Source: Nitrospirota bacterium
GTDB lineage: Bacteria > Nitrospirota > Thermodesulfovibrionia > Thermodesulfovibrionales > UBA6898
DNA: 32,000 nucleotides
NCBI GenBank assembly: GCA_021825365.1
Contig: JAKAHR010000002.1
Coordinates: 121,639-153,638, forward strand
Reading direction: 5' to 3'
Shown here: positions 340-30,741 of the stretch, in pieces
Layout of the letters: each line of letters starts with the position of its first letter
Numbering within the stretch: position 1 is the first letter of the stretch
Made by a program: the position numbers and the translations under genes
The notes under the pieces: model-generated
Told to the model about the DNA's origin: nothing
What the model saw: only the letters and a program-made list of their open reading frames with translations
The model's database searches: none

Positions 340-1887
340 TTACCTCCAGAGTCTGATGTTAATCAATAACAGTATCGATATCACGATGCAGAAATACGAG
401 AACAGGTCCCCGTACTTCGTGTAAAAGGTCAGGGTCTTGTCGGTCTTTATCGTATCCGTCAGCACCTGTCTCGTGAAAAGCGGGGTGGTCGACAATATCC
501 TGCCGTTGCTGTCGATGAAACCCGACACCCCCGTATTGGCGGACCGGATAACCGGCTTTCTGTTTTCAACCGCCCTGAAGACAGCCATGCTGAAATGCTG
601 GTACGGCCCCGCCGTCCTTCCGAACCAGGCATCGTTCGTAATCGTCACCATGAAATCCCCGCCCTTTGTATAGAACTTCCGCACCATGCCCGGAAAGATG
701 ATCTCATAGCAGACCAGGGTCCCGAAGCTGCCGAAATCGGTCCCTGCCCGCAGGTACGACTCCCCTGCAACATAATCACCGATGCCCGCAGCGATCTTGT
801 CTACGAAAAAGAGGACACTCCTGAGGGGGACGTACTCGCCAAAGGGTACCAGATGTATTTTATCATAGATATAAATGGATTTTCCTGAGGGGTCGAGGAG
901 TATCGCGCTGTTGGTCAGAAGGGTCTTCTCCTTTGTGCGCTCCTGCACCCGGACGCTTCCGAAGAGGAGGTAGGCCCCGAGCCCTTTCTGGAACTGGATA
1001 AGCTCCTCGCTGAGCATGCCGTCGTACCCAAACATGAAAGGGACGGACGTCTCCGGCCAGACGATGAACTGGGGAGTCTGAAGGGCAGCCTCCTTCGAGA
1101 GGCCGAAGTAGGTACTGAGCACCTCGTTCTGAAAGGCCGGTTCCCACTTCTTGTCCTGTTCGATATTGCCCTGGACGACGCTCGCCCTGACCGGCGCTCC
1201 CGGCCTGTTCTGCCCGAGCCGCAGGGCTCCGTATCCGAGGCTGATGAGCAGGGCCGCCGCAACAACGGCTATGCCTGCTATGGAATACGACGCCGGAAAC
1301 AGGGGCATCACCTTCGTGCGTTTCTTCAGGAGAAAGACATCGACTATCGCGCTGTTGAAGGCGATGACAAGAAAGGATATGCCGTAGATCCCGGTGATGT
1401 CCGCGACCTGTATCATCGGCAGGAACCGGTATTGGGTATATCCGATGCTCGCCCAGGGAAAGCCGGTAAAGGCATACGAACGAAGATATTCCAGCACCAC
1501 CCAGAATACAGGGGCAATGAGAGAGGCGGGGAGCTTCGTCCTGTTGATGAGGACCGTAACCAGGTACGAAAATATCGCCGGATAGATGCTGAGGTATCCG
1601 CACAGAAGAAACACGAGGGCGATGCTCGAAAGAAAAGAGACGCCGCCGAAATGGTTGATGGAATGGTATATCCAGTACAGGGTGCCGAAGAAATAGACCA
1701 TCCCGAAGGCATACCCGGTGACAAAGGCCCTGTCAGGCTTCTTGTCCCAGAAGGAGAGGAGCAGCGGCACGAAGCCGACCCATGCCAGGGATGAGACATC
1801 CGGCTTGGGAAAGGCGAGCACGACCAGGATCCCGGAGAGGATCGCCGGATAGAATTCGCTCAGCTTTTTCATGAATGAATCACTCAT
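340..1887 (-). CDS. lnt: Apolipoprotein N-acyltransferase
   Basis: 515-aa ORF. The N-terminus is multi-pass hydrophobic, followed by a CN-hydrolase domain with VWPETS (Glu), YDKIHLVPFGEY (Lys) and LVCYEIIFP (Cys) catalytic-triad contexts. Its stop lies 4 nt before the prfB ATG. Confidence 0.9.
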   Translation of the reverse strand: MSDSFMKKLSEFYPAILSGILVVLAFPKPDVSSLAWVGFVPLLLSFWDKKPDRAFVTGYAFGMVYFFGTLYWIYHSINHFGGVSFLSSIALVFLLCGYLSIYPAIFSYLVTVLINRTKLPASLIAPVFWVVLEYLRSYAFTGFPWASIGYTQYRFLPMIQVADITGIYGISFLVIAFNSAIVDVFLLKKRTKVMPLFPASYSIAGIAVVAAALLISLGYGALRLGQNRPGAPVRASVVQGNIEQDKKWEPAFQNEVLSTYFGLSKEAALQTPQFIVWPETSVPFMFGYDGMLSEELIQFQKGLGAYLLFGSVRVQERTKEKTLLTNSAILLDPSGKSIYIYDKIHLVPFGEYVPLRSVLFFVDKIAAGIGDYVAGESYLRAGTDFGSFGTLVCYEIIFPGMVRKFYTKGGDFMVTITNDAWFGRTAGPYQHFSMAVFRAVENRKPVIRSANTGVSGFIDSNGRILSTTPLFTRQVLTDTIKTDKTLTFYTKYGDLFSYFCIVISILLLINIRLWR

Positions 1888-2042: not shown

Positions 2043-2118
2043 GGGCAGTTAGCTCAGTCGGTAGAGCAGAGGCCTGAAAAGCCTCGTGTCCGCAGTTCGA
2101 TTCTGCGACTGCCCACCA
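2043..2118 (+). tRNA. tRNA-Phe (anticodon GAA), CCA encoded
   Basis: 76-nt cloverleaf folded by hand. Acceptor GGGCAGT/ACTGCCC; D arm GCTC-AGTCGGTA-GAGC; anticodon stem GAGGC/GCCTC with loop CTGAAAA; T arm CGCAG-TTCGATT-CTGCG; 3' ACCA. Confidence 0.95.
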
Positions 2119-18662: not shown

Positions 18663-19188
18663 GCATACAATCGATTTTGACGAGATTCAAAAGGCGATGG
18701 AAGACACCGGTAGAGATGCCTTTGACTACTTCCTCGATACCTCCACCGGTGACGTTGTCATCCTCTCCGAGGATATTATCAGCAGGGCAAGGGAACTGCT
18801 ATCCCACCATCTTGACGACGACACTGACAACTACGAGGAGGTGGAGTTCGACGAGGAGACTGACCTTCCCGAATGGATGGAAGATGAAATAGACCTGGCG
18901 CTTGATATCTTCCTGTACGAAAAAGACCGGTATGCGAGAATCCCCGAGCGGGACCCTCGGGACTGCTACACAGCTATGACGGAATTCTCCGCACAGGTGG
19001 CCAACCCTTCCTTACGCAGCCGCCTCCTTTCAGTCCTGGACGGACAGGGTGCCTTCAGGAAATTCAAAGACGCCCTGGCGCCTTTCCCTTCAGAAAGAAA
19101 ACAATGGTACAGTTTTAACGCAAAAAGCATGCGGAATGAGATAGCCGGCTGGCTCTCCGGTGTACTGAAGACTGAAGGGGGATCCTAG
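18655..19188 (+). CDS. UPF0158-family protein
   Basis: The track ORF starts at 18340, inside the previous gene. I place the start at GTG 18655 (alternative ATG 18697). Acidic middle region; C-terminal GAFRKFKDAL....W..F motif typical of UPF0158. Confidence 0.6.
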   Translation: MDKHTIDFDEIQKAMEDTGRDAFDYFLDTSTGDVVILSEDIISRARELLSHHLDDDTDNYEEVEFDEETDLPEWMEDEIDLALDIFLYEKDRYARIPERDPRDCYTAMTEFSAQVANPSLRSRLLSVLDGQGAFRKFKDALAPFPSERKQWYSFNAKSMRNEIAGWLSGVLKTEGGS

Positions 19189-19901
19189 GACCGCTGCGGG
19201 GTGTTTCCAGAAATGAAATTCATCAGGCTATTGATGTCTTCCTCGGGGATATCCAGAAATTTTACACCGTAGAGTGAACTGCCGGAGGCGAGTTTCGGCT
19301 GTCTCCGGATAATCTCCGCGTCAAGCATTAACCGCTTCCTGCTCTTTGGATCAACAAAGGATATCCCCACCTTCTGCTTCATCAGAAATTCGGCGCTGCA
19401 CTCGAAGGCCATACCCGTCTTGCTGAAATCCAGAGACTTTCCGGTATATTTGATGTTGCTGCCGTCCGGCCGGATATTTACCAGTATCTCAAAGACCCTT
19501 CGCAACGATCTCCGCTGAAGACTCATCACCTTTGCAACAAAAGCGCCTCTGTCAACCGGGGTGCGGAAAACAATTTCCCCATCCGCACCATCCCCTCGTG
19601 CAGGAAGCTCCGGAACCTCAGGCGGCAGAATCGATATGAGGGGCACTTTAGAAAAAGAGGGGCTGATCTTCAGGGAAGAAAGGTCGTTTGCGTAGTGTCT
19701 CCCATTTGCATACAAGACAATCACATCCGGCTCATCCTTCGCCTTCAGGGCATCGGCTACCGAGCCGAAAGTGACGCACTGAGAGCCCTTGTCCATTAGA
19801 TATGCCCTGATCGTCTTCAGTCCGCCGGGGAATGTTTCCACAAGAAATACTTTTTCCACAAGCGCTATTCTACCATAAAGAACCGCACCACAAGGAAACA
19901 A
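19185..19901 (-). CDS. PilZ-domain protein with degenerate receiver-like N-terminal domain
   Basis: 238 aa. The PilZ c-di-GMP motifs are RRSLRR, then about 25 residues later DFSKTGMAF. The N-terminal half has a CheY-like beta-alpha pattern but lacks the acidic pocket and phospho-acceptor Asp. Start uncertain: TTG 19901 or GTG 19859. Confidence 0.65.
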   Translation of the reverse strand: MFPCGAVLYGRIALVEKVFLVETFPGGLKTIRAYLMDKGSQCVTFGSVADALKAKDEPDVIVLYANGRHYANDLSSLKISPSFSKVPLISILPPEVPELPARGDGADGEIVFRTPVDRGAFVAKVMSLQRRSLRRVFEILVNIRPDGSNIKYTGKSLDFSKTGMAFECSAEFLMKQKVGISFVDPKSRKRLMLDAEIIRRQPKLASGSSLYGVKFLDIPEEDINSLMNFISGNTPQRS

Positions 19902-19982: not shown

Positions 19983-20528
19983 CTAGAGCTCTGACACCTC
20001 GCGAAGCACCTGAGGGTTTCGCGTGAGGACCCGCCTGCACGCCTTACAAAACTCCTTTGACTTGTGGTCCGTGTCGCTGAGGTTGTATGAGAAGAACATG
20101 ACACACTGCCGCTGGCTGCAGTGCGAGAGCCCAAGAAGGTGTCCGACCTCATGGACCGCAGTCTTGACAGCCCTTCCGATAACCCCTCTGCCGGCCGGCT
20201 TTCTCTCATCACCCTGGCCGAAGCGGGCTATGGAGATAATGGCAGCCGGATATTCACGATCAGCAAGACCGAATACATAATTCAGTCCTGGATACGAGAG
20301 ATCGACATCTGTAATCGCAACTGTCAGCCCCGGCCCTTTCGCCAACGAGCGGAGACATTTCAGCAGATGCGCCGCAAAGTATTGCCTGCCCGGAGACTCT
20401 TTCGCGAATCCCTCAATAGAGGCGGTCGGCGCCACGGTAACAGGGAAACCCAAGAGCGAACCCGTCTCCTCCGCAACCGTTGAAACAATATCGATATCGA
20501 TGTTCCCAAGAGGCACTACCCGTATCAT
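19983..20528 (-). CDS. amzA: Archaemetzincin-like zinc metallopeptidase (peptidase M54)
   Basis: HEVGHLLGLSHCSQRQCVM....CKAC fits the archaemetzincin signature HExxHxxGxxxCxxxxCxM...CxxC. Start set at ATG 20528 (MIRVVPLGN, GGAG just upstream) rather than track position 20627. Confidence 0.75.
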   Translation of the reverse strand: MIRVVPLGNIDIDIVSTVAEETGSLLGFPVTVAPTASIEGFAKESPGRQYFAAHLLKCLRSLAKGPGLTVAITDVDLSYPGLNYVFGLADREYPAAIISIARFGQGDERKPAGRGVIGRAVKTAVHEVGHLLGLSHCSQRQCVMFFSYNLSDTDHKSKEFCKACRRVLTRNPQVLREVSEL

Positions 20529-20644
20529 CGTCTCCGGGACGTCTCGCCTCATCATCGCCGTACCTGTGCTCACGAAATATGGAGAGGCAAATCCCGTGCC
20601 TGCCAAAAGGGGCCTTCCTCCCCCCATAGCCGCCTGACGTTATT

Positions 20645-20671
20645 TCATATTGAAATGCCATTTCAATATGA
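20645..20671. promoter_or_regulatory. 27-bp perfect palindrome, candidate operator for the NtrC-type regulator
   Basis: TCATATTGAAATG-C-CATTTCAATATGA has 13-bp arms. The half-site CATTTCAAWATGA is the same as in the inverted repeat at 24784-24820. It lies in the intergenic region about 100 nt upstream of yeeE. Confidence 0.55.
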
Positions 20672-20750
20672 GAGAATTCATAAGCATATCCACCGGGGAA
20701 ATTCACTCGAAACAAAACGCCGGAGTTGGCTTTATCGCCTTCTAAAACCG

Positions 20751-20756
20751 TATAAT
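20751..20756 (+). promoter_or_regulatory. Possible -10 element (TATAAT) of the yeeE-tusA-kinase-regulator operon
   Basis: A perfect TATAAT ends 16 nt before the yeeE ATG. The only -35-like hexamer (TTGGCT, 20726-20731) sits at a suboptimal 19-nt spacing. Confidence 0.3.
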
Positions 20757-20772: not shown

Positions 20773-21897
20773 ATGTATCCGGAGATTGTTCTTACCCATC
20801 TTCTGTTTGGCATCGGACTCGGCGTTGTCATGCATCGGTCGGATTTCTGCATGGCCGGGGCATTCCGCGATATCTTCATCACCCGCGATTTTTTCCGGAT
20901 GAGGGCTGTCATCCTCCTGGTTTCCGTGACCTCCGTACTGCTATACCTGGCCCGCACTGCCGGCCTCGTGGACTCTTACCCGCCATCCTTCTATTCCTCC
21001 CCCTCGCTCGCCCATCTTGCGGGAGGCGTCATCTTCGGCATCGGCATGGTCCTTGCTGGCGGTTGTGTTATGGGAACCCTCTATAAAGCGGGAGCTGGAA
21101 ACCTTGTCAGTCTGTGCGCCTTTTCAGGACTCCTTCTCGGCAGCCTGCTCTTCGCCTGGGCATATCCGCTGCACCGCTCCTTTGTCGAGGCGACTACCCT
21201 GCCCGGCGGATTTACCGCCATGGAACACCTGACCGGAGCCCCGGGGCTGTCCGCATTACTTATCGTCTCGATATCCATCCTGTACCTCTTCAGGGGAAAA
21301 GAGCGTCCTGCCTGGACGAGTAATGCCTTTGCCAGGGGTTATCTCGACCCCTGGAAGGCGGCGCTTATCGTCTGCGCGATCATCATCCTATCCTTTACCC
21401 TGACCGGCCGCCCTCTCGCGCTTACGTCAGGGTACTCAAGACTTGCCTCGTGTCTTGCAGAAAGGTTGCTGCCCGAAGCCGTCACCCTTCCCTCCGCCAG
21501 AAGCGACTCTGTTCGTCTCCTCTATGGGATGGCCATGGACCCGGAGAGCCTGTCAGGGACTGACCCTGTGGTGCTCACGCAGGTACCCCTGATCTTCGGA
21601 ATTGTCATCGGCGCCTTTCTTTCCGCCCTGAGGCTGGGGGAGATCACCGCCCGCCCGGCGCCTCCCCGAAGGCAGCTCCTTTCCGGTTTCGCTGGCGGCA
21701 TCCTCCTCGCATGCGGTTCTCTGATGGCAGGCGGCTGCAATGTCTGGCATATCATGGGAGGACTGCCGCTTTTCGTATTTCAGAGCGTCCTCTTCGTCTG
21801 CGGCATGGGGTTCGGCGCATATGTCGGAAGCCGCCTGCTGCTCACAACGGTCCTTCAAGTTGAGAGGTGTGCCCCACATGGAAACCATAGCTATTGA
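20773..21897 (+). CDS. yeeE: YeeE/YedE-family sulfur-compound transporter
   Basis: 374 aa, polytopic. The Cys-containing motifs of the sulphur-transport domain are HRSDFCMAGAFRDIF, GMVLAGGCVMGTLYKAG and GSLMAGGCNVWHIMGG. Confidence 0.85.
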   Translation: MYPEIVLTHLLFGIGLGVVMHRSDFCMAGAFRDIFITRDFFRMRAVILLVSVTSVLLYLARTAGLVDSYPPSFYSSPSLAHLAGGVIFGIGMVLAGGCVMGTLYKAGAGNLVSLCAFSGLLLGSLLFAWAYPLHRSFVEATTLPGGFTAMEHLTGAPGLSALLIVSISILYLFRGKERPAWTSNAFARGYLDPWKAALIVCAIIILSFTLTGRPLALTSGYSRLASCLAERLLPEAVTLPSARSDSVRLLYGMAMDPESLSGTDPVVLTQVPLIFGIVIGAFLSALRLGEITARPAPPRRQLLSGFAGGILLACGSLMAGGCNVWHIMGGLPLFVFQSVLFVCGMGFGAYVGSRLLLTTVLQVERCAPHGNHSY

Positions 21898-22117
21898 TAT
21901 CAGGGGGCAGATCTGCCCCGCCTGTCTGCTGATTACTCTACGGGAAATCAACACCCACAAGACGGTCCTGAGGGACGGCAAGGCGCGCCTCGTCATAAAA
22001 ACCGATCACCGCGACGCCACAAGGACAATACCCTCCACGGTCTGCGCCATGGGGTACGATATCAATGTTACAGGCCGGAAGGGTTACTACGAGATCACGA
22101 TCGGGTACCGGAAATGA
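21878..22117 (+). CDS. tusA: TusA/SirA-family sulfur carrier (variant CPAC motif)
   Basis: 79 aa from ATG 21878 (METIAIDIRGQICPACLL...). This is the D.RG..CP motif of the TusA fold. It overlaps the yeeE end by 20 nt and the kinase start by ATGA. Confidence 0.75.
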   Translation: METIAIDIRGQICPACLLITLREINTHKTVLRDGKARLVIKTDHRDATRTIPSTVCAMGYDINVTGRKGYYEITIGYRK

Positions 22118-23403
22118 GAAAGATCGCTCCCCTCCGTATCAACAATATCGATGAACTCCAGAAGAGCAATGAGACGCTGAAGCGTTACATCCGGGAAAAG
22201 GTGAACCAGTTGCTCTCGATGATGGGCACGAGGCCGCTTGATCCCGCCGAGCTTGACGACAGTACGCTGCTTGACATCGATCCGATCGGCATCATAGCCG
22301 ACGCCTTCGGCCAGGTCCTCGAACACCTCGAGGAGACTAACAGGAAATTGATCAACACCAAGGATCAGTTGCAGGCCGTCTTCGAGACCGCAGGGGTCTG
22401 CATCTCGATCGTCGACCCTGACCTCAGGATCATCAGCTGCAATGAGAAGCAGCGGGAATTGCTCGTCTCCGATCTCAACGAGAAGGAATTTGTCGGCCGC
22501 TATTGCTACGAGGTCTATTGCGGTAACGATTCTCCGGCCCTCTACTGTCCGGCGATCGAGACGATCGAGACAGGGAAACCGGTCTTCATCAGGGAAATCA
22601 AGAAGAAAGGCAGGTATTTCCAGATCGTCACCTCCCCCCTGAAAAACCGCGACGGCACCCTCAAAGGCGTCGTCGAGGTCTCGATCGACGTGACGGAAAA
22701 GAAGAGGGCTGAAGAGGGCATGCGGCAGGCCGAAAAATTGTCAGCCATCGGCCTGCTCGGAGCCGGCGTTGCCCATGAGATCAATACACCCCTTGGTAAT
22801 ATCCTCGGCTATGCCAAAATGCTGCTAAAGGAGCAGGACCTCAGCGACCACCATAAGGAAAAATTGCAGGTCATCGTCGAACAGGCGAAAAAGGGCAGCG
22901 AGATCATCAGGGGACTTCTCAATTTTTCCCGTCAGTCAAAGCCTTCCCTTGCCACCATTTCGATGAACGATATGGTCAACAAAGTGCTCCTGGAGCTTTC
23001 GACCCAAATCGAGCGACAGGGGATAACCACCAGAAAAAACCTCCGGCCGATACCCCTCGTCGAGGCTGACCCCCTGCAGATAGAGCAGGTGCTCAGCAAT
23101 CTGGTGCTGAATGCGCTCCACGCCCTTGCCCGGACCCCGGAGGGGACCATCATCGTTGAGACACAGCGTACCGGCGCCTTTGTGGAGACGCGGATTGTCG
23201 ATAACGGCCCCGGCATATCCGACACCCTGCTCCCCCTGATATTCGATCCCTTCTTCACGACCAAGCCCGTGGGCGAAGGAGTCGGCCTCGGCCTTTCCAT
23301 CTGCTCGGGAATCATCAGGGACCATGGCGGCACCATACAGGCGGAGTCCGACCCCCGGGGAAAGACGGTCTTTTCTTTCCTCCTGCCCGTCAGATCCCCA
23401 TGA
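22114..23403 (+). CDS. Soluble PAS-domain sensor histidine kinase (NtrB/AtoS type)
   Basis: 429 aa with no hydrophobic TM segment. Coiled N-terminus and a PAS-like region carrying five Cys (including RYCYEVYCGNDSPALYCP). H box AHEINTPLGNILGY; ATPase G boxes DNGPGI and GVGLGLSI. Confidence 0.9.
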   Translation: MRKIAPLRINNIDELQKSNETLKRYIREKVNQLLSMMGTRPLDPAELDDSTLLDIDPIGIIADAFGQVLEHLEETNRKLINTKDQLQAVFETAGVCISIVDPDLRIISCNEKQRELLVSDLNEKEFVGRYCYEVYCGNDSPALYCPAIETIETGKPVFIREIKKKGRYFQIVTSPLKNRDGTLKGVVEVSIDVTEKKRAEEGMRQAEKLSAIGLLGAGVAHEINTPLGNILGYAKMLLKEQDLSDHHKEKLQVIVEQAKKGSEIIRGLLNFSRQSKPSLATISMNDMVNKVLLELSTQIERQGITTRKNLRPIPLVEADPLQIEQVLSNLVLNALHALARTPEGTIIVETQRTGAFVETRIVDNGPGISDTLLPLIFDPFFTTKPVGEGVGLGLSICSGIIRDHGGTIQAESDPRGKTVFSFLLPVRSP

Positions 23404-24779
23404 CAAAAATTGATCTTTCTCCTGAGGCGACTCCGCTGGCCCATCTGCTTATCGTCGAAGACGACTACCGCATGAGACTTCTCATGAAGCAGCTTCTCGA
23501 AAAAGAGGGGTATGCCACAACGGTCACGGAAGACGGCCGGGATGCCGTATCCCTGATCAAGGAGCGCTTCTTTGATATCGTCCTCACTGACCTCAAGATG
23601 CCCCATCTTGACGGCATGGAGGTACTCAGCGTCTCCCGGGAAGTCAATCCGGACACCCCCGTAATCGTCACGACCGGATATGCAACCGTGGACTCGGCGG
23701 TTGAGGCGATGAAGAAGGGCGCCTATGATTACGTGCAGAAGCCGTTCGATCCCGACGAACTCCTCCTCGTCGTGAAGCGCGCCCTCGACTACCGAAGGCT
23801 GATCGACGAGAATATCCGGCTGTCGGTAGCCCTTGAGAGTTGCTCTGGAGAAGAATTCGTGGGAATGAGCAACGGGGCTGTCAAGACGCGAAAATTCGCG
23901 GAGAGAGTCGCGCCGTTTGATTCAACGGTATTGATCCAGGGCGAGACCGGCTCGGGCAAGGAACTTGTCGCACGGCTGATCCATCGGCTCAGCAGAAGGG
24001 CGTCTCATAAATTTCTCGCGGTAAACTGTGCCGCCCTGACAGAATCCCTCCTGGAGGCTGAACTCTTTGGCTATGAGAAGGGCGCCTTTACCGGTGCGAC
24101 CCAGATGAAACGGGGGCTTTTTGAGGCCTCGGACGGCGGCACGCTGTTCCTCGACGAGATCAACAACTCCTCGGCATCGATGCAGATGAAACTCCTCCGA
24201 GTACTGCAGGACGGCCGGATCATCCGGGTGGGAGGGGTCGAACCGATAGACATCAATGTCCGTGTCATCGCAGCCTCGAATGCTGACCTGAAGTCCGAGA
24301 GCGAAGAAGGACGATTCAGGAAGGACCTCTTCTACCGCATCAATGTGGTCATGATCGATATCCCCCCCCTGAGAGGCCGCCGCGACGATATCCCTCTCCT
24401 GGCGACTCATTTCCTGGACAAGTACTCCCGCAAGTTCGCGAAGGAAATTAAGGGCTTCAGTCCGGAGGTGATGAAGATCCTCGCTGACTATCCCTGGCCC
24501 GGCAATGTCCGCGAACTCGAGAATGCGATCGAGCACGCGGTCATCATGGCGAAATCGCAAAAAAGCATATCAGCCGAATCTCTCCCTGAAGAGGTCAGAA
24601 AGAAGAAGCAGGGTGCTCTACCCCCTCCTTTCGCGGCCGTTCGTCTCGATGAGGTCGAAAAATCACTCATAGAGCAGGCGATGCTCACCTTCAACGGCCA
24701 GAAGGCGAAGGCTGCAGAGGCCCTCGGCATCAGCTCTTCGACCCTCTGGAGGAAACTGAAAAAATACCGGCTTGAATGA
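23400..24779 (+). CDS. Sigma-54-dependent response regulator (NtrC family bEBP)
   Basis: 459 aa. Receiver domain (LLIVEDD...VLTDLKMP). AAA+ domain with GETGSGKE, the GAFTGA sigma-54 contact loop and DEIN Walker B. C-terminal Fis-type HTH (AAEALGISSSTLWRKLKKY). Confidence 0.95.
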   Translation: MTKIDLSPEATPLAHLLIVEDDYRMRLLMKQLLEKEGYATTVTEDGRDAVSLIKERFFDIVLTDLKMPHLDGMEVLSVSREVNPDTPVIVTTGYATVDSAVEAMKKGAYDYVQKPFDPDELLLVVKRALDYRRLIDENIRLSVALESCSGEEFVGMSNGAVKTRKFAERVAPFDSTVLIQGETGSGKELVARLIHRLSRRASHKFLAVNCAALTESLLEAELFGYEKGAFTGATQMKRGLFEASDGGTLFLDEINNSSASMQMKLLRVLQDGRIIRVGGVEPIDINVRVIAASNADLKSESEEGRFRKDLFYRINVVMIDIPPLRGRRDDIPLLATHFLDKYSRKFAKEIKGFSPEVMKILADYPWPGNVRELENAIEHAVIMAKSQKSISAESLPEEVRKKKQGALPPPFAAVRLDEVEKSLIEQAMLTFNGQKAKAAEALGISSSTLWRKLKKYRLE

Positions 24780-24783
24780 TCGT

Positions 24784-24820
24784 GCATTTCAAAATGACAA
24801 ACCAACTCATTTTGAAATGC
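24784..24820. promoter_or_regulatory. Upstream activator sequence candidate: 14-bp perfect inverted repeat
   Basis: GCATTTCAAAATGA-N9-TCATTTTGAAATGC starts 5 nt after the regulator stop. It lies about 165-200 nt upstream of the sigma-54 promoter, the usual bEBP enhancer distance. It is AT-rich and has no trailing T-tract, so it is unlikely to be a terminator. Confidence 0.6.
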
Positions 24821-24984: not shown

Positions 24985-25000
24985 TGGCACCCATCTTGCT
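24985..25000 (+). promoter_or_regulatory. Sigma-54 (-24/-12) promoter
   Basis: TGGCAC-CCATC-TTGCT is an exact match to TGGCAC-N5-TTGCW. It lies 75 nt upstream of the first ATG of the downstream operon and directly downstream of a sigma-54 activator gene. Confidence 0.85.
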
Positions 25001-25074: not shown

Positions 25075-25254
25075 ATGTCGATAGAAGGAAAAGGCGGACT
25101 TACCTTGCCCTGGCTCTGGGTGGCTGTCGTGATCGCCTATCTCGCCTTTGGCTTCATGCTGCCCCCCTTCGATAGCCACCTGAAGGAGCTGGCAAAGGCC
25201 AAAGCTGCACCCGCGGCCGATCAGAGCGGGAAGGGCGACGAAATTGTCTTTTGA
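25075..25254 (+). CDS. Small single-pass membrane protein (59 aa), unknown family
   Basis: ATG 25075 is preceded by AAAGGAG (25061-25067). MSIEGKGGLTLPWLWVAVVIAYLAFGFMLPPF is one TM helix, followed by a charged and Ala-rich tail. First gene after the sigma-54 promoter. Confidence 0.6.
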   Translation: MSIEGKGGLTLPWLWVAVVIAYLAFGFMLPPFDSHLKELAKAKAAPAADQSGKGDEIVF

Positions 25255-25258
25255 CCGC

Positions 25259-25780
25259 ATGGTCGAGCCCCCCGCAAGAAGGCCCAGCCCCAGGGAAAAA
25301 CATCACGGGACTGCCCGGGTTTCCCCGGCGATACACCTTGTGCTCGCAGCTTTCCTCATCTTCCTGTGTGAAGGAAACCCCTGCGGAGAGGCGTCGGAAA
25401 AGAAAGGGAGCATATCCCCCGGGGGCGAGGTGCGGGAAATCCGGTGGACCCCCACGAGCGAGGGATTATCGGTAGAACGCATTGTAGCGCGGAAGAAGGT
25501 GGTGGTCCCTATCGAGGTCTCGCTCAACGGAAACATCGCAGAAGTAATCTTTATCATTCCTTCAAAATTCAAGGCCTTCGGCATCTCCATGGAACCACAG
25601 GTGGCCGAAGTGAAGAACGGCAAGGCACAAGCAGGGGTTGCGTTTTATATCCTGGAGGGGATGCCGCTCGGCAGGCACAATCTCATCATCGAAATCCTCG
25701 ATGGCCTGACCCGGACCAGGATAGGAAGCGCCACCATCCCCTTTATCCTCCTGCCGTCTGATCTCGAATGTCTTTGCTGA
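25259..25780 (+). CDS. Secreted protein of unknown family, paralogue A, ends in ..LLPSDLECLC
   Basis: ATG 25259 lies 4 nt after the previous stop (the track uses TTG 25244). Basic N-region, then a hydrophobic helix AIHLVLAAFLIFL (signal or anchor). The C-terminal 67 aa align without gaps to the next gene product (23 identities counted by eye). Confidence 0.7.
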   Translation: MVEPPARRPSPREKHHGTARVSPAIHLVLAAFLIFLCEGNPCGEASEKKGSISPGGEVREIRWTPTSEGLSVERIVARKKVVVPIEVSLNGNIAEVIFIIPSKFKAFGISMEPQVAEVKNGKAQAGVAFYILEGMPLGRHNLIIEILDGLTRTRIGSATIPFILLPSDLECLC

Positions 25781-25824
25781 TTGGATCTGCTCTATAAAAA
25801 GGAGAAAGGAAGGTATATACAACC

Positions 25825-26304
25825 GTGAAGAAAATAGGAACTCTTATGGGAGCCGCTATCCTGGCTTCCTTTCTGCTCGCCGGCGTACCATTGATTACTA
25901 CTCATAACAGCAGCGACGGTGCGGTGAAGACCGCCGAGGCGGCTGAGGCACCCTCCACAGACTTCGCGTGGCACCCCAACAGACCGGGGATCAAGCGGGC
26001 GCAGATAGCCCTCGGCAGGGCCTCTACACTTCGCTTCGAGTTCTCCCTCAAGGGAAAAAACGGCACACAGGTGAAATTCGGCTTGCCGAAAAAATATGTG
26101 ACCATGGGCATCAGGATCGACCCCCATGAAGTCCCGGTCAGCGAGGGAAAGGCATCGTCCAAGGCGGTGCTCACCGTGCCACCCGGAATGCCCCTCGGAA
26201 AGTTCGATATCCCCGTGATCGCGGTAGACGCGAAAACAGGAACAGAGCTCGGCAGGGGCGAGATCCCGATCATGCTGCTGCCTGCCGGAGTGGGCGGGTG
26301 TTAA
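25825..26304 (+). CDS. Secreted protein of unknown family, paralogue B, ends in ..LLPAGVGGC (SoxY-like C-terminal Cys tail)
   Basis: GTG 25825 follows an AAAAGGAGAAAGGAAGG SD region. Sec-type signal MKKIGTLMGAAILASFLLAGVPL. It shares the motifs LPKKY, GI.I.P, GKA, GMPLG and IP.(I/M)LLP with paralogue A. Confidence 0.75.
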   Translation: MKKIGTLMGAAILASFLLAGVPLITTHNSSDGAVKTAEAAEAPSTDFAWHPNRPGIKRAQIALGRASTLRFEFSLKGKNGTQVKFGLPKKYVTMGIRIDPHEVPVSEGKASSKAVLTVPPGMPLGKFDIPVIAVDAKTGTELGRGEIPIMLLPAGVGGC

Positions 26305-26331
26305 CCGTGCAATCCAAGGAGGAAGAGCCGT

Positions 26332-27732
26332 ATGGATGACTACGGAGTGCGAGGCTGGTGGGATGCGTGGTACAGGAAATTCTTCAAAGAAAAATGGCCG
26401 CTCTCAATGGCGGCGGTATTCATGGCACTTTCCGGGATAATTGCCTACGGCGTCGCGGTATGGTCCCTGGCCAGGACGGTGGCGGGAAGTAACCCGTACG
26501 ATCAGGCCAAACCGCTCGGCACCTTCCTCGGATTGAAGGAACTCGGCGGTATCATCAACGGCCTTCTGGGCAAGATCGGGCTCCCTCATTACCCCTTTGC
26601 CGGATATACGTGGCCTGATGGCGTGACGATCAACTTCTTCCAGCAATATCCAAATCCCTTGCTCGAACCGACGGCCGGCACGATGCTCGGCATACTCTTC
26701 GGAGGCCTTATCGCCGCCCTCCTGGCGAAGGAGTTCGCCCTGAAGGTACCCTTCGACAGGACCGAGTACAGCCTGGCGGTCGTCGGAGGCATCCTGATGG
26801 GGGTAGGCGCGGTCTTTCAGTTCGGCTGCCCCGTGGTGAGCACCACCAACCTGGGGGCCATGGGCGTACAGGCGATCATCATGGTCATCGGCATGACGAT
26901 CGGCTCCTATTTCGGAGCAAAAATCATCGTCTGGCTCGAAAAAAGAAGGGTTGCGGCGATCGCCTGCGCAGCGGACGGGGCCGGCTACCGGCCGCTGATG
27001 CTTTTTGAAAAGACAAAGACAGTCTGGCCCCGCCTGCCTGACCGGGCCGACGGCGGCGAACCGGCCGGCCTCAGGTATCAGCCGTATCTGGCCGCCTTGC
27101 TTCTGGGGGCGATGGTGCTCATCCTCCTCCGTTTTGCGGGCCTGGGCTACCCTGCTCTTTCGCTCTCCTTTGCCGCAGCCACCCTCACCGGCTTTGCGAT
27201 GCAAAGGGGAGGGATCTGTTTCGCCTACGCATACCGCGAACCGTTTCTCTCGGGATTTTCAGATATGTCGCGGGCGATGGCATTGCTCTACATCCTGCTG
27301 GTGCTCGGCTTCCTGCCGATGAAGCTGCTGGCGACTGCGAATCCTGATCTTGCGTATGCGGAGATTTTCGCGATTAGCCCCGCCGGCATCGGCGTCCTGC
27401 TCGGTTCAATTCTCTTCGGCATCGGCATGGCGCTCAACGGAGCGTGTGTCAGTGACAGCCTCTGGAGGACTGCAGAAGGACAGGTAAAGATCTGGGTGGG
27501 GCTGCTCACCCTCATCTGCGTGTCGTCCTGGATCTTTCCGATGCGCGAGGAGGCATGGTTCAAGAGTATCTTCGCGCCCTATGGCTCGCAGAACATCCGC
27601 GACGTATACCTGCCGGAGATCCTGGGCGGATATCCTGCAGCAGTCGCCTTTGTCATCGGCGTGGTAATTTGCTGGGCCCTGCTGATGACATGGTTCAGCG
27701 GCAGGACTTTCAGAAAATACATGGAGGAATAG
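26332..27732 (+). CDS. Divergent, enlarged YeeE/YedE-like membrane protein
   Basis: 466 aa, polytopic. YeeE-type Cys motifs are recognisable but diverged: GVGAVFQFGCPVVSTTNLG, QRGGICFAYAYREPF, GIGMALNGACVSDSLWRTAEG. It has an extra N-terminal segment and a long hydrophilic loop between the two halves. Confidence 0.7.
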   Translation: MDDYGVRGWWDAWYRKFFKEKWPLSMAAVFMALSGIIAYGVAVWSLARTVAGSNPYDQAKPLGTFLGLKELGGIINGLLGKIGLPHYPFAGYTWPDGVTINFFQQYPNPLLEPTAGTMLGILFGGLIAALLAKEFALKVPFDRTEYSLAVVGGILMGVGAVFQFGCPVVSTTNLGAMGVQAIIMVIGMTIGSYFGAKIIVWLEKRRVAAIACAADGAGYRPLMLFEKTKTVWPRLPDRADGGEPAGLRYQPYLAALLLGAMVLILLRFAGLGYPALSLSFAAATLTGFAMQRGGICFAYAYREPFLSGFSDMSRAMALLYILLVLGFLPMKLLATANPDLAYAEIFAISPAGIGVLLGSILFGIGMALNGACVSDSLWRTAEGQVKIWVGLLTLICVSSWIFPMREEAWFKSIFAPYGSQNIRDVYLPEILGGYPAAVAFVIGVVICWALLMTWFSGRTFRKYMEE

Positions 27733-27816
27733 ACGGGACGCGGGCTGTTCAATCCGATGTCCCCTCACCGTAACGACCGCCGGGTTCCCGGGTCCGGCTA
27801 AACGAAAGGAGGAATA

Positions 27817-28053
27817 ATGGCAACGGAAAGCCATATCGACAGGGAGCTGGATGTGAAGGGGCTCGTCTGTCCAAGGCCAATGGTGATGAGCATGAGTGCG
27901 CTGAAAGCGATGTCACCGGGGCAGGTGTTGAAGATCACGGCGAATGACAGCAGCACGAAACATTCCATTCCGGCCTTGTGCGAACGGGCAGGGTACAAAC
28001 TCGTCGAGCAGACGGAGGAGATGGGAGCTTTCATCTTCATCATCCAGAAATAA
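27817..28053 (+). CDS. tusA: TusA/SirA-family sulfur carrier (canonical CPxP motif)
   Basis: 78 aa. LDVKGLVCPRPMVMSMSALK is the TusA active-site motif. SD AAAGGAGG upstream (27803-27810). Confidence 0.85.
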   Translation: MATESHIDRELDVKGLVCPRPMVMSMSALKAMSPGQVLKITANDSSTKHSIPALCERAGYKLVEQTEEMGAFIFIIQK

Positions 28054-28106
28054 CCCGAAAGCCTGCGGACTGCAGGCCACATTTCACAGACAGGCGGAGG
28101 TAATAT

Positions 28107-29411
28107 ATGCGAAAGAGGCTATTGGAAACAAATAGGGCAAGCCTGGTACTGCTGGCGATCGCCCTGTCACTGATCTCTTTTTCCCTGATTCTCCACGGAT
28201 GTGGAGGAGGCGGCTACGATGCCCCTGCCACAACCCAGACCGTGTCGGCCCTGGTCTCGCCCGAGACCCTCAAGGGCTGGATCGACAACGGGAGCGTAAA
28301 CGGCACGGGATACGACAAGGTCGTCATCCTCGACGTCAATTCCCAGGCAAACTACTCAGCCGGGCATATACCCGGCGCCCAGTTTCTCGATAGCGCGGAC
28401 ATTTATCAGACGAGAAACGAAGGCATCGCCGCTGACGTCAACATGGTCCTTGACGGCAGTCACATGGACGCATTGATCCACAAATACGGCATAGATCGCA
28501 ATACAACGATCGTTTTTACAAGCGGCAACAATGATCCCAAGACAACGCCGTCGTCCATGCTCTCTGCCACCAGGGCCTATTGGACCTTCCGGTACTGGGG
28601 CTTTCCCAAGGAGAGACTCAAGGTAGCCGACGGCATCAACCCCGCATGGTCCGCCGTGTTCGGACTGACTACCGCCCCCTCGCCGGCGATCATCCCCTCC
28701 ACGTACAGCGTAAAGAGCAACGGGCTTCTGCGGAGCGAAGTAAGGGCATCTCTGGCCGAGATGATCAGCCTCGTTGACAGCGGAACTCCCAACGCGCTGA
28801 TCATAGACGGCAGGGGATCAGGCGGCTCGTTTGCAGGCACCCCAGGGTCGACCGCAGGCGTCTTCCCCCCGACCGGAGATTTTGTCGCCTTTGAAGGAAG
28901 GATCAAAGGGGCAAAGGCATTGGGATATACAACGCTCTTTGATTCCGGCAACGGCAACCGCTTCCTCCCGCCGGACCAGCTCGCCGCGAAATTTGCCGCG
29001 ATCGGGCTCGACAGCTCCAAGACCGCCTATGTCCACTGCCGCACCGGCGTCATCGCCTCTGCCCTGTATTTTGCACTCGATGGAATCCTCAACTGGCCAG
29101 CGTCCAACTATGATGCATCCTGGAGCCAGTGGGGGCAGCTTGCAGGAGACCCAACTGACGGCAAACAGATTGACCCGAATTCCCCCTGGAGAACCGACAT
29201 CCCCTCCCGGTCGGAGCTCGTCGTCTACAATGGGGCAAACGGCAAGACCGTCGAGAAGCTCTGTCTGGACGGTTCCGCCGCCACCTGCGCCACGCCGGCG
29301 TCGTTCGATACGGATGCGAACAAGATCGAGGAAGAAGACGCCGCGTATATGAACAGCGGCGGCTCAGCCGGCGGTTCCGGAGGCGGAGGAGGAGGCAAGA
29401 CAGGATGCTAG
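28107..29411 (+). CDS. Tandem-rhodanese (thiosulfate/polysulfide sulfurtransferase-like) lipoprotein with Gly-rich C-terminal tail ending in Cys
   Basis: 434 aa. Signal peptide with lipobox LHG-C (Cys32). The first rhodanese domain lacks the catalytic Cys (VFTSGNND). The second has the active-site loop YVHCRTGVIAS (Cys311, nt 29037-29039). The tail is SGGSAGGSGGGGGGKTGC-stop. Confidence 0.8.
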   Translation: MRKRLLETNRASLVLLAIALSLISFSLILHGCGGGGYDAPATTQTVSALVSPETLKGWIDNGSVNGTGYDKVVILDVNSQANYSAGHIPGAQFLDSADIYQTRNEGIAADVNMVLDGSHMDALIHKYGIDRNTTIVFTSGNNDPKTTPSSMLSATRAYWTFRYWGFPKERLKVADGINPAWSAVFGLTTAPSPAIIPSTYSVKSNGLLRSEVRASLAEMISLVDSGTPNALIIDGRGSGGSFAGTPGSTAGVFPPTGDFVAFEGRIKGAKALGYTTLFDSGNGNRFLPPDQLAAKFAAIGLDSSKTAYVHCRTGVIASALYFALDGILNWPASNYDASWSQWGQLAGDPTDGKQIDPNSPWRTDIPSRSELVVYNGANGKTVEKLCLDGSAATCATPASFDTDANKIEEEDAAYMNSGGSAGGSGGGGGGKTGC

Positions 29412-29467
29412 GGAGCAATGATGCGGAAAGAGCAGAGAACCATTCCATCGTCAAGGAGGAGAATAGC

Positions 29468-30664
29468 ATGATGAGAATTCTAAAATGGGCGTTGCTCCTG
29501 ATGCTTCCGGTTGCCGTCTTCTGCATGGGAGAGCGGGACGCCCTCGCCTTTCAGCCTATCGTGTTTGGTGAAGAAGGGGCCTTTTTGAAAATCGATTATC
29601 AGGGCCAGCTTTACGGCGTGGTGCGTGACACAGGGTCCGGTCCGGACAAGACAGCGGATACGACTGACCTGTTCTTCAGAAGGAACCGTCTGACCTTCTG
29701 GGGACACGGCACCGACAAATACGGGTTTATCGTCCAGCTTGAATATACCGGGGAGAGGAGAGTCGACTCGCTCATCGTCAACGATCAGCCCGGCAAGGAC
29801 TTCAACGTCCTTGACGCCTATTTCATGGCGGACTTTTCGAACAGTTTCCGGGTCTATGCGGGAAAGCAGAAGATACAGCTGACGAGGGAAAACCTCGAAG
29901 ATTGTTTCGAGCCCCTCAGCGTCGACCGTTCCCTCTTCATCTATACGCCGTTCAAGCACAGCAGGGACACCGGACTGGTCGTCTGGGGAAACATCCCCGA
30001 GTTGCTGATGCAATACCGGCTGGCGGTCTCGAAAGGGAAAGATAATGGCGATGAGCCCAAGAGCTCCCTCATGTACACCGGCCGCGTACACGTCTCCCTC
30101 CTGGATCCGGAATACGCATACGGGTACAAGGGGACATATCTCGGGACCAAAAAGACGCTGACCGTGGGCGCAGGCGTTCAGTACGAGCCGGACGCGGTAT
30201 TCAGCGATATCGTCAACAAGACCGGGGGCAAGAACTACTCCGCCTGGACCGTTGATGCCTTTTTCGAATATCCGTTCAAGAATGCCGGTGCCATCACCCT
30301 GTCGGGGGCTTATCTGCAAACGAAATTCGACGAGGCCTTCAAGGGGAACAACCCTGATCCGGAGAGTCTCGGCATCGACGGAGACAAGAAAGGCTGGTAT
30401 CTGAAGGCAGGCTACCTCCTGCCCATGAAGATCGGGTGGGGGCAGGTCCAGCCCTTTGTCCGTTACGAGGACTGGAGTTTCGCCCAGCTGAACAATGTCT
30501 TTGACCAGAAGGTGAAGTGGTTCGGGGCAGGGCTCAACTATCTGATCAACGGACAGAGCCTCAGGATTACCCTCGAATACGCGAAGACGAATTTCGACAA
30601 GGAGCCGAATCCGCAGTCAAAGGATTTCAGCACGGTCACCGCGATGCTGCAGTATCGGTTCTGA
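29468..30664 (+). CDS. Outer-membrane beta-barrel porin, OprO/OprP-like (anion-selective porin family)
   Basis: Start at ATG 29468 (AAGGAGGAG SD). Signal MMRILKWALLLMLPVAVFC..ALA-F. FFRRNRLTFWG motif as in phosphate-selective porins. Alternating beta-strand pattern, with C-terminal ..MLQYRF (terminal Phe). Confidence 0.7.
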   Translation: MMRILKWALLLMLPVAVFCMGERDALAFQPIVFGEEGAFLKIDYQGQLYGVVRDTGSGPDKTADTTDLFFRRNRLTFWGHGTDKYGFIVQLEYTGERRVDSLIVNDQPGKDFNVLDAYFMADFSNSFRVYAGKQKIQLTRENLEDCFEPLSVDRSLFIYTPFKHSRDTGLVVWGNIPELLMQYRLAVSKGKDNGDEPKSSLMYTGRVHVSLLDPEYAYGYKGTYLGTKKTLTVGAGVQYEPDAVFSDIVNKTGGKNYSAWTVDAFFEYPFKNAGAITLSGAYLQTKFDEAFKGNNPDPESLGIDGDKKGWYLKAGYLLPMKIGWGQVQPFVRYEDWSFAQLNNVFDQKVKWFGAGLNYLINGQSLRITLEYAKTNFDKEPNPQSKDFSTVTAMLQYRF

Positions 30665-30695: not shown

Positions 30696-30741
30696 GGTCA
30701 TATGGAGGTAATCATCACCTCCATATGACCCTCTTTTTTTG
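30696..30741 (+). terminator. Rho-independent terminator of the sigma-54 operon
   Basis: GGTCATATGGAGGT-AATCATC-ACCTCCATATGACC is a perfect 14-bp stem followed by CTCTTTTTTTG. It starts 32 nt after the porin stop. Confidence 0.9.

Follow-up and report, generated by a model that had tools for sequence, protein, structure and literature searches.

A 27-bp palindrome upstream of a yeeE-tusA two-component operon is a probable enhancer of a divergent sigma-54 promoter in a Nitrospirota bacterium

Sequence and spacing conservation across orthologous loci, together with the arrangement of promoter elements and neighboring genes, suggest that the perfect 27-bp palindrome at 20645-20671 of the window (the whole 32,000-nucleotide stretch of DNA analyzed here) is likely to be the enhancer, or upstream activator sequence, of a minus-strand sigma-54 promoter (20601 to 20586) driving the divergent gene for an M54 metallopeptidase. 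Because the site is locked at 38-41 bp from this promoter, it is likely not the means by which the regulator encoded in the opposite direction controls its own operon. The original prediction envisaged a regulon of two operons under the NtrC-type regulator, one of them its own. At least two targets that share a motif are indeed present, but the wiring needs correction: in place of the regulator's own operon, the second target is probably the gene for the M54 metallopeptidase. The mechanism itself is that of a standard bacterial enhancer.

The palindrome and its 14-bp unit

As originally described, the sequence TCATATTGAAATG-C-CATTTCAATATGA at 20645-20671 is fully self-complementary, with a single C as the spacer, and its 13-nt arm is one base off the arms of the inverted repeat GCATTTCAAAATGA-N9-TCATTTTGAAATGC at 24784-24820. 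When arms of 13 nt or more and spacers no longer than 10 nt are required, the window contains four perfect inverted repeats, three of them distinct, compared with a mean of 0.01 in first-order Markov simulations; the palindrome is real and not a chance occurrence. The sequence CATTTCAAWATGA has four zero-mismatch matches in the 32-kb window, every one inside 20645-20671 or 24784-24820. The earlier reading, which found no other copies of such pairs in the window, missed a third, overlapping copy of the unit at 20640-20653. Beyond the two regulon sites, no copy of the palindrome or of the unit described below was detected in the window or, across the 1.34 Mb of loci retrieved for comparison, at any position that is not orthologous, and no paired units were detected elsewhere in these loci, which include 78 loci of paralogous NtrC-type regulators.

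The arms had been regarded as half-sites, whereas the comparison of 42 oriented copies shows that the 13-nt arm belongs to a complete 14-bp unit, nCATTTCAAAATGA, with the consensus TCATTTCAAAATGA, in which positions 4-8 (TTTCA) and 12-13 (TG) are invariant. The arm is itself near-palindromic (CATTT-CA-AAATG) and the unit is nearly self-complementary (TCATTT/AAATGA). It follows that the difference between a "direct" and an "inverted" order of the arms is in part a matter of reading frame, and that a tandem pair of units 18 bp apart can also be read as an imperfect palindrome. A single unit is probably the whole putative binding unit, for one dimer, and its register could be either TCATTT/AAATGA or TTTCA-N3-TGAAA with the 7-N3-7 geometry of NtrC sites.

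Three units are discernible at the site. Unit A (TTATTTCATATTGA, 20640-20653, plus strand, three mismatches to TCATTTCAAAATGA) is the promoter-proximal one, centered near -72 of the minus-strand promoter, and aligns with TCATTTCATATTGA, TCATTTCAAAATGA and similar copies in the orthologous loci L115/L116, L117, L120 and L081. Unit C (CCATTTCAATATGA, 20658-20671, plus strand, two mismatches) is distal, lying 18 bp from unit A with its center near -90. Units A and C reproduce the tandem 18-bp arrangement of the orthologues. The third, unit B (20645-20658, minus strand; the plus strand reads TCATATTGAAATGC), overlaps the other two in the opposite orientation; it constitutes the left arm of the palindrome, and only in this lineage is it a good match.

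Arm complementarity at the position of the palindrome drops away from the window, from 13/13 to 11/13 in L115/L116, whose regulator is 95% identical, 9/13 in L117, 8/13 in L120, 10/13 in L081, 7/13 in L123 and 4/13 in L124, so that the perfect dyad is lineage-specific and it is the tandem units that are conserved. The 27-bp dyad is therefore not the conserved feature; it arises because the unit is near-palindromic and has acquired a few lineage-specific substitutions. The opposite arrangement of the arms noted originally is likewise a trait of this lineage, the conserved layout being a tandem pair 18 bp apart. Selection on the dyad itself was considered in view of an apparent compensatory change between the window (GAAATG-C-CATTTC) and L081 (GAAAAG-C-CTTTTC), and was dropped because other loci lose the dyad (9/13, 8/13 and 4/13).

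It is conceivable that the site has nothing to do with the regulator, being the operator of some other protein, a repeat that is REP-like or forms a cruciform, or a palindrome that arose by chance. As single-stranded DNA, the sequence folds at -9 kcal/mol (z = -4.95) and could form a 12-bp hairpin, which would favor this reading. However, only about 0.01 such palindromes are expected per window in simulation; the unit is confined to the two regulon sites in the window and to orthologous positions in the 1.34 Mb of loci; the units are conserved whereas the perfect dyad is not; and the site, which lies between divergent genes and lacks a T run, is untranscribed given that it is upstream of both inferred transcription starts. 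Taken together, these observations make an unrelated site very improbable. Two other candidate roles were rejected. An RNA element is ruled out by the position of the site upstream of both inferred starts and by the lack of an Rfam match there, the only Rfam match in the window being a tRNA at 2043-2115 (plus strand). An intrinsic terminator is ruled out by the AT-rich stem, the missing T run and the location between the 5' ends of divergent genes.

A sigma-54 promoter directed at the M54 peptidase gene

The original prediction held that no correctly spaced -24/-12 element follows the palindrome. This is true of the plus strand, where no sigma-54 promoter was found between the units and yeeE in any locus scanned; the lone plus-strand -24/-12 match, in L115/L116, is a mirror image of the minus-strand element and was discarded. 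The element that had been missed is on the minus strand: AGGCAC-GGGAT-TTGCC (AGGCACGGGATTTGCC) at 20586-20601 has the GG-N10-GC spacing, with the -24 GG at 20600/20599 and the -12 GC at 20588/20587, and the start of transcription would fall near 20575. It is one of five matches that score at least 9 of a maximum of 11 against the consensus TGGCAC-N5-TTGCW on both strands of the window (64 kb). The promoter lies 38 bp from the units and is directed at the divergent M54 peptidase gene. In an alignment of six loci, the promoter GG and GC are invariant, GCAA and CC being the invariant columns, and conservation is concentrated in three blocks, namely the -12/-24 bases, the units and the promoter of yeeE.

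The features by which a sigma-54 enhancer can be recognized from sequence are all found here: a -24/-12 element within about 200 bp that points away from the site, at least two copies of the motif, a cognate regulator with GAFTGA and helix-turn-helix signatures, a second regulator-linked sigma-54 promoter that carries the same motif conserved in orthologues, and a fixed distance to the promoter. Several observations count against the enhancer reading. The -24 hexamer, AGGCAC, departs from the consensus TGGCAC, and the -12 element reads TTGCC. A gap of 38 bp leaves little room for DNA looping, and no IHF-like site was seen within it. Two orthologous loci also fit poorly: L121 differs in that its units are inverted and stand 95 bp away from a -24/-12 candidate of lower quality, and L123 keeps tandem units upstream of yeeE, where neither a sigma-54 promoter nor a called divergent gene was found.

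The inferred target gene (19983-20555, minus strand) encodes an archaemetzincin-like metallopeptidase of the M54 family (Pfam PF07998, E = 1.1e-19). Its true start is probably the ATG at 20555, about 20 nt past the inferred transcription start, as judged from an alignment of the proteins and from L115, where the gene was called at 190 aa. The longest open reading frame (19983-20627, minus strand) extends 72 nt beyond this ATG and engulfs its own sigma-54 promoter, and the peptidase gene calls of 207 aa in L116 and L117 show the same over-extension. The next gene on the minus strand, 81 nt past the peptidase gene, encodes a PilZ-domain protein (19185-19901) and could be part of the same sigma-54 transcript; L115 lacks this gene at that position.

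The second site and the main sigma-54 operon

The other occurrence of the motif, at 24784-24820, begins 5 nt past the stop codon of the regulator gene and consists of two inverted units (GCATTTCAAAATGA-N9-TCATTTTGAAATGC) whose centers are 23 bp apart. This upstream activator sequence is followed by a sigma-54 promoter with the maximum score of 11/11, TGGCAC-CCATC-TTGCT (TGGCACCCATCTTGCT; 24985-25000, plus strand), and by an operon at 25075-30664 (plus strand) that encodes three small proteins, a 466-aa YeeE-like protein, TusA, a rhodanese-like protein and an O/P-type porin. The gene order of this operon is repeated in L115-L121. The sharing of the motif by the two sites indicates that the NtrC-type regulator (23400-24779) very probably binds both of them, the motif being assigned to this protein by association. 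The first three proteins of the operon (25075-26304, plus strand; 59, 178 and 159 aa) have no Pfam match, and we note that they keep their order across L115-L126, being conserved constituents of a sulfur-trafficking operon. The operon probably ends with an intrinsic terminator at 30696-30741 (plus strand), a GC-containing hairpin followed by a T run; its strong palindrome, GGTCATATGGAGGTAAT / ATCACCTCCATATGACC and then CTCTTTTTTT, comes directly past the porin gene.

Conservation in orthologous loci

Orthologous loci were gathered by searching genomes with the regulator and metagenomes with YeeE, and through a graded series of regulator homologues (95-63% identity); all were scanned by one script for units and -24/-12 elements. 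The closest named relatives come from metagenome-assembled genomes of Nitrospirota/Thermodesulfovibrionales, the nearest being Candidatus Sulfobium, with 64% identity in the regulator; an identical regulator is present in the ENA metagenome assembly ERZ27237538.

What these loci show directly is the sequence of the units, how they are spaced and conserved, and that they occur together with the promoter. The tandem units, a 38-41 bp gap and the -24/-12 element are found together in seven loci beyond the window (L115, L116, L117, L120, L081, L124 and L087). In the first five of these, the units are 18 bp apart, the minus-strand -24/-12 element follows at 38-39 bp, and the divergent gene encodes an M54 peptidase. 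L124 has the same layout with a 19-bp period and a 41-bp gap, and its divergent gene encodes a Metallophos/5_nucleotid_C protein, not a peptidase. The distant locus L087 (YeeE 40% identical) carries the tandem layout with a 40-bp gap on the 3' side of the regulator gene, in an operon to which the peptidase gene belongs. The unit-to-promoter gap is accordingly 38-41 bp in eight loci including the window; in L002, it is 43 bp with a 17-bp period. Several of the supporting loci are close to the window (regulator 89-95% identical), so that the support amounts to about six independent lineages and not nine. As a side observation, the divergent gene of L124 (442-2007, minus strand; 521 aa; units and promoter region at 2160-2249) combines the Metallophos and 5_nucleotid_C domains, a pair that is also found in SoxB-type thiosulfohydrolases.

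The motif downstream of the regulator gene is conserved in at least 15 orthologous loci, with a sigma-54 promoter 74-278 bp further on. The inverted pair with centers 23 bp apart is present 3' of the regulator in L001, L082, L112, L115-L120, L122, L123, L125 and L126; L121 and L124 keep the 23-bp pair and add an overlapping 18-bp copy. In three more distant loci (L125, L126 and L087), the peptidase gene is inside the sigma-54 operon downstream of the regulator, as its first gene in L125 and L126. These associations suggest that the peptidase probably belongs to the regulon. One and the same motif thus appears in two enhancer layouts, a tandem one (units repeated every 17-19 bp, with 38-43 bp to the -24/-12 element) and an inverted one (23 bp between centers, 74-278 bp from the promoter), and the shortness of the former points to stereospecific, short-range activation without an obvious IHF site.

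The upstream region of yeeE presents a different picture. No units were found upstream of yeeE in L001, L082, L122, L125 and L126, which have orthologous operons without the tandem arrangement, and among the loci that do have the units, their distance from the yeeE TATAAT varies from 37 to 80 bp. Among the orthologues, therefore, the site does not travel with the regulator's operon at a constant promoter distance; judging from these alignments, it is tied to the minus-strand sigma-54 promoter and not to yeeE. L123 has tandem units upstream of yeeE (2183-2214), with neither a sigma-54 promoter nor a called divergent gene detected there; an ABC transporter gene on the same strand ends upstream, and the region about 47 bp to the left of the units, read by eye, offers only TTGCC, with TT at the position of the -24 GG. 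This TTGCC could be a decayed promoter or a chance match, and the persisting units might be vestigial or might point to a function at the promoter of yeeE. In L125, a good sigma-54 promoter (TGGCATATATCTTGCA; 1587-1602, minus strand) is located upstream of small genes divergent from yeeE, and since no units accompany it, a different activator may act there.

The yeeE promoter and the question of autoregulation

The operon on the other side of the intergenic region comprises, on the plus strand and by Pfam assignment, yeeE (20773-21897, Sulf_transp), tusA (21878-22117, start checked), a PAS histidine kinase gene (22114-23403) and the gene for the NtrC-type response regulator (23400-24779; Response_reg, Sigma54_activat and HTH_8). 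The regulator thus has receiver, AAA+ and HTH_8 domains, with GAFTGA at residue 228; no obvious membrane segment was found in the histidine kinase. The TATAAT noted previously is present at 20751-20756, and forms part of a sigma-70-like promoter candidate, TTGGCT-N19-TATAAT (20726-20756, plus strand), whose TATAAT is invariant in the six aligned loci. With about 16 nt between the -10 element and the start codon, the leader would be very short. Loci without upstream units have comparable promoters, TTGACT/TTGACA-N18/19-TATAAT in L001, L082 and L122 and TTGACA-N18-TAGAAT in L126. The 18-19 nt spacer between TTGGCT or TTGACT and TATAAT, seen in the window, L001, L082, L122, L123 and L124, is unusually long.

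The original prediction was that the regulator autoregulates this operon through the palindrome. Between the end of the units at 20671 and the start of the -35 candidate at 20726 there are 54 bp, such that the units cannot occlude the yeeE promoter, and no operator-type overlap of 20645-20671 with the -35, -10 or start of the regulator's own operon was found. As the units neither overlap nor track the yeeE promoter, lying at a variable 37-80 bp from its TATAAT, and are missing in five orthologous operons, the autoregulation model is not supported as stated, although an additional autoregulatory effect on the yeeE operon is conceivable. In its strict form, which has the palindrome serving solely as an operator through which the yeeE operon is autoregulated at a sigma-70 promoter, with no sigma-54 promoter involved, the model could draw on the motif shared with the upstream activator sequence at 24784-24820, on the TATAAT at 20751 and on a weak sigma-70-like match, TTGAAA-16-GAGAAT, that overlaps the palindrome. 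This last candidate promoter was rejected upon comparison of the loci, its second hexamer being lost in L120, L081 and L124 (L081 reads ATGAAA/ACGACA and the second hexamer of L120 is AAGACA). The conserved minus-strand -24/-12 element at a fixed 38-41 bp from the units and the five orthologous yeeE operons that lack the site further render a pure operator very improbable.

A less restrictive alternative is that the site has a dual function, with the bound regulator activating the divergent sigma-54 promoter and also tuning its own sigma-70-like yeeE promoter, either directly or indirectly, via negative supercoiling that divergent transcription would exert on a promoter with a 19-bp spacer. 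Such a function would resemble that of PspF in the pspF-pspA intergenic region or of NtrC at glnAp1/glnLp. The location of the site in a shared intergenic region of 217 bp, 54 bp upstream of the yeeE -35 candidate, would be compatible with it, and so would the tandem units upstream of yeeE that L123 keeps without a detectable sigma-54 promoter. Moreover, the spacer of the yeeE promoter is conserved but suboptimal at 19 bp, and the -35 elements of loci with a divergent peptidase gene (TTGGCT, TTGTCT, TTTCTT) are weaker than those of L001, L082 and L122 (TTGACT/TTGACA). Nevertheless, the site is clear of the yeeE -35, -10 and start, the units stand anywhere between 37 and 80 bp away from TATAAT, and five orthologues lack units upstream of yeeE; furthermore, we know of no GAFTGA regulator that acts as an activator of the sigma-70 holoenzyme. 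On balance, we regard a dual function as unlikely, although it is a good deal less remote than a pure operator. The more specific proposal that one bound complex serves both directions, activating the sigma-54 peptidase promoter and feeding back on its own operon either directly or through supercoiling, appears somewhat more doubtful still. If true, it would constitute a positive-feedback design not described for enhancer-binding proteins, and it would place an archaemetzincin-type peptidase in the sulfur-import regulon of uncultured, sulfur-cycling Nitrospirota.

A model of the regulon and comparison with known systems

Returning to the enhancer reading, the following sequence of events can be proposed. 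YeeE and TusA, made with the kinase and the regulator from the sigma-70-like promoter, would probably supply the cytoplasmic PAS kinase with a sulfur signal. Once phosphorylated, the NtrC-type regulator, whose gene lies 2.7 kb downstream of the palindrome, would bind the two tandem units at about -72 and -90, oligomerize, and spend ATP to open the sigma-54 closed complex at the peptidase promoter. Acting on the inverted units at 24784-24820, about 200-220 bp upstream of the start, the same regulator would activate the 25075-30664 operon. Binding, the transcription start and the dependence on the regulator and on RpoN, whose gene lies outside the window, are what we infer in this scheme.

Among the closest known parallels is enteric NtrC at glnAp2, where a receiver/AAA+/Fis-type HTH regulator occupies two adjacent dimer sites upstream of a sigma-54 promoter. 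The present system is similar in having paired sites upstream of a sigma-54 promoter and the same set of regulator domains, and the unit in the register CATTTCA-N3-TGAAATG shares the 7-N3-7 geometry of TGCACCA-N3-TGGTGCA. In contrast, the motif here is unrelated and AT-rich, the centers are at about -72 and -90 rather than at -108 and -140, with no more than 38 bp between the units and the -24 element, and the signal and targets would pertain to sulfur trafficking rather than to nitrogen. With respect to the divergent arrangement, PspF (pspF-pspABCDE) and ZraR (zraP-zraSR) of E. coli bind between divergent units one of which encodes the regulator, and likewise the putative enhancer-binding site described here is in a divergent intergenic region, one flank of which is the regulator's operon. 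However, the PspF sites overlap and repress its own sigma-70 promoter, whereas the units here end 54 bp upstream of the yeeE -35 element; and both promoters of zraP-zraSR are sigma-54 dependent, whereas the regulator's operon here has a sigma-70-like promoter.

Beyond its mechanism, the regulon offers a functional lead, in that gene context ties an archaemetzincin-like peptidase gene to a YeeE/TusA/rhodanese/porin sulfur-trafficking operon; to our knowledge, the substrates of prokaryotic archaemetzincin-like peptidases are unknown. A full-text literature search found no paper on this regulon or on a link between archaemetzincin-like peptidases and YeeE/TusA systems, and the system appears to be undescribed. 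The motif model nCATTTCAAAATGA, together with the two layouts, is usable for regulon prediction in Thermodesulfovibrionales and Sulfobium-like genomes.

As for sulfur-related counterparts, TspS/TspR of Acidithiobacillus caldus is a sigma-54-dependent two-component system with the palindromic site TGTCCCAAATGGGACA that targets sox genes, in which TspS has been proposed as a thiosulfate sensor in the context of periplasmic thiosulfate metabolism (PMC6335251). The two systems are alike in that a two-component system adjoins sulfur-metabolism genes and a palindromic upstream activator sequence is involved, orthology not being implied by this likeness; they differ in that the kinase here is apparently cytoplasmic and is co-encoded with YeeE and TusA. 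In Hyphomicrobium denitrificans, the YeeE-like SoxT1B is a signal-import unit for the repressor SoxR (PMC11582611), and the two systems have in common that the gene for a YeeE-family transporter is paired with one for a protein that regulates the transcription of sulfur genes. By analogy, this suggests that imported sulfur might be the signal here as well, the parallel being by inference only, since the regulator there is an ArsR-type repressor rather than a kinase together with an enhancer-binding protein. Finally, the PAS region of the histidine kinase is cysteine-rich, which, along with the lack of an obvious transmembrane segment, fits cytoplasmic sensing of imported sulfur species.
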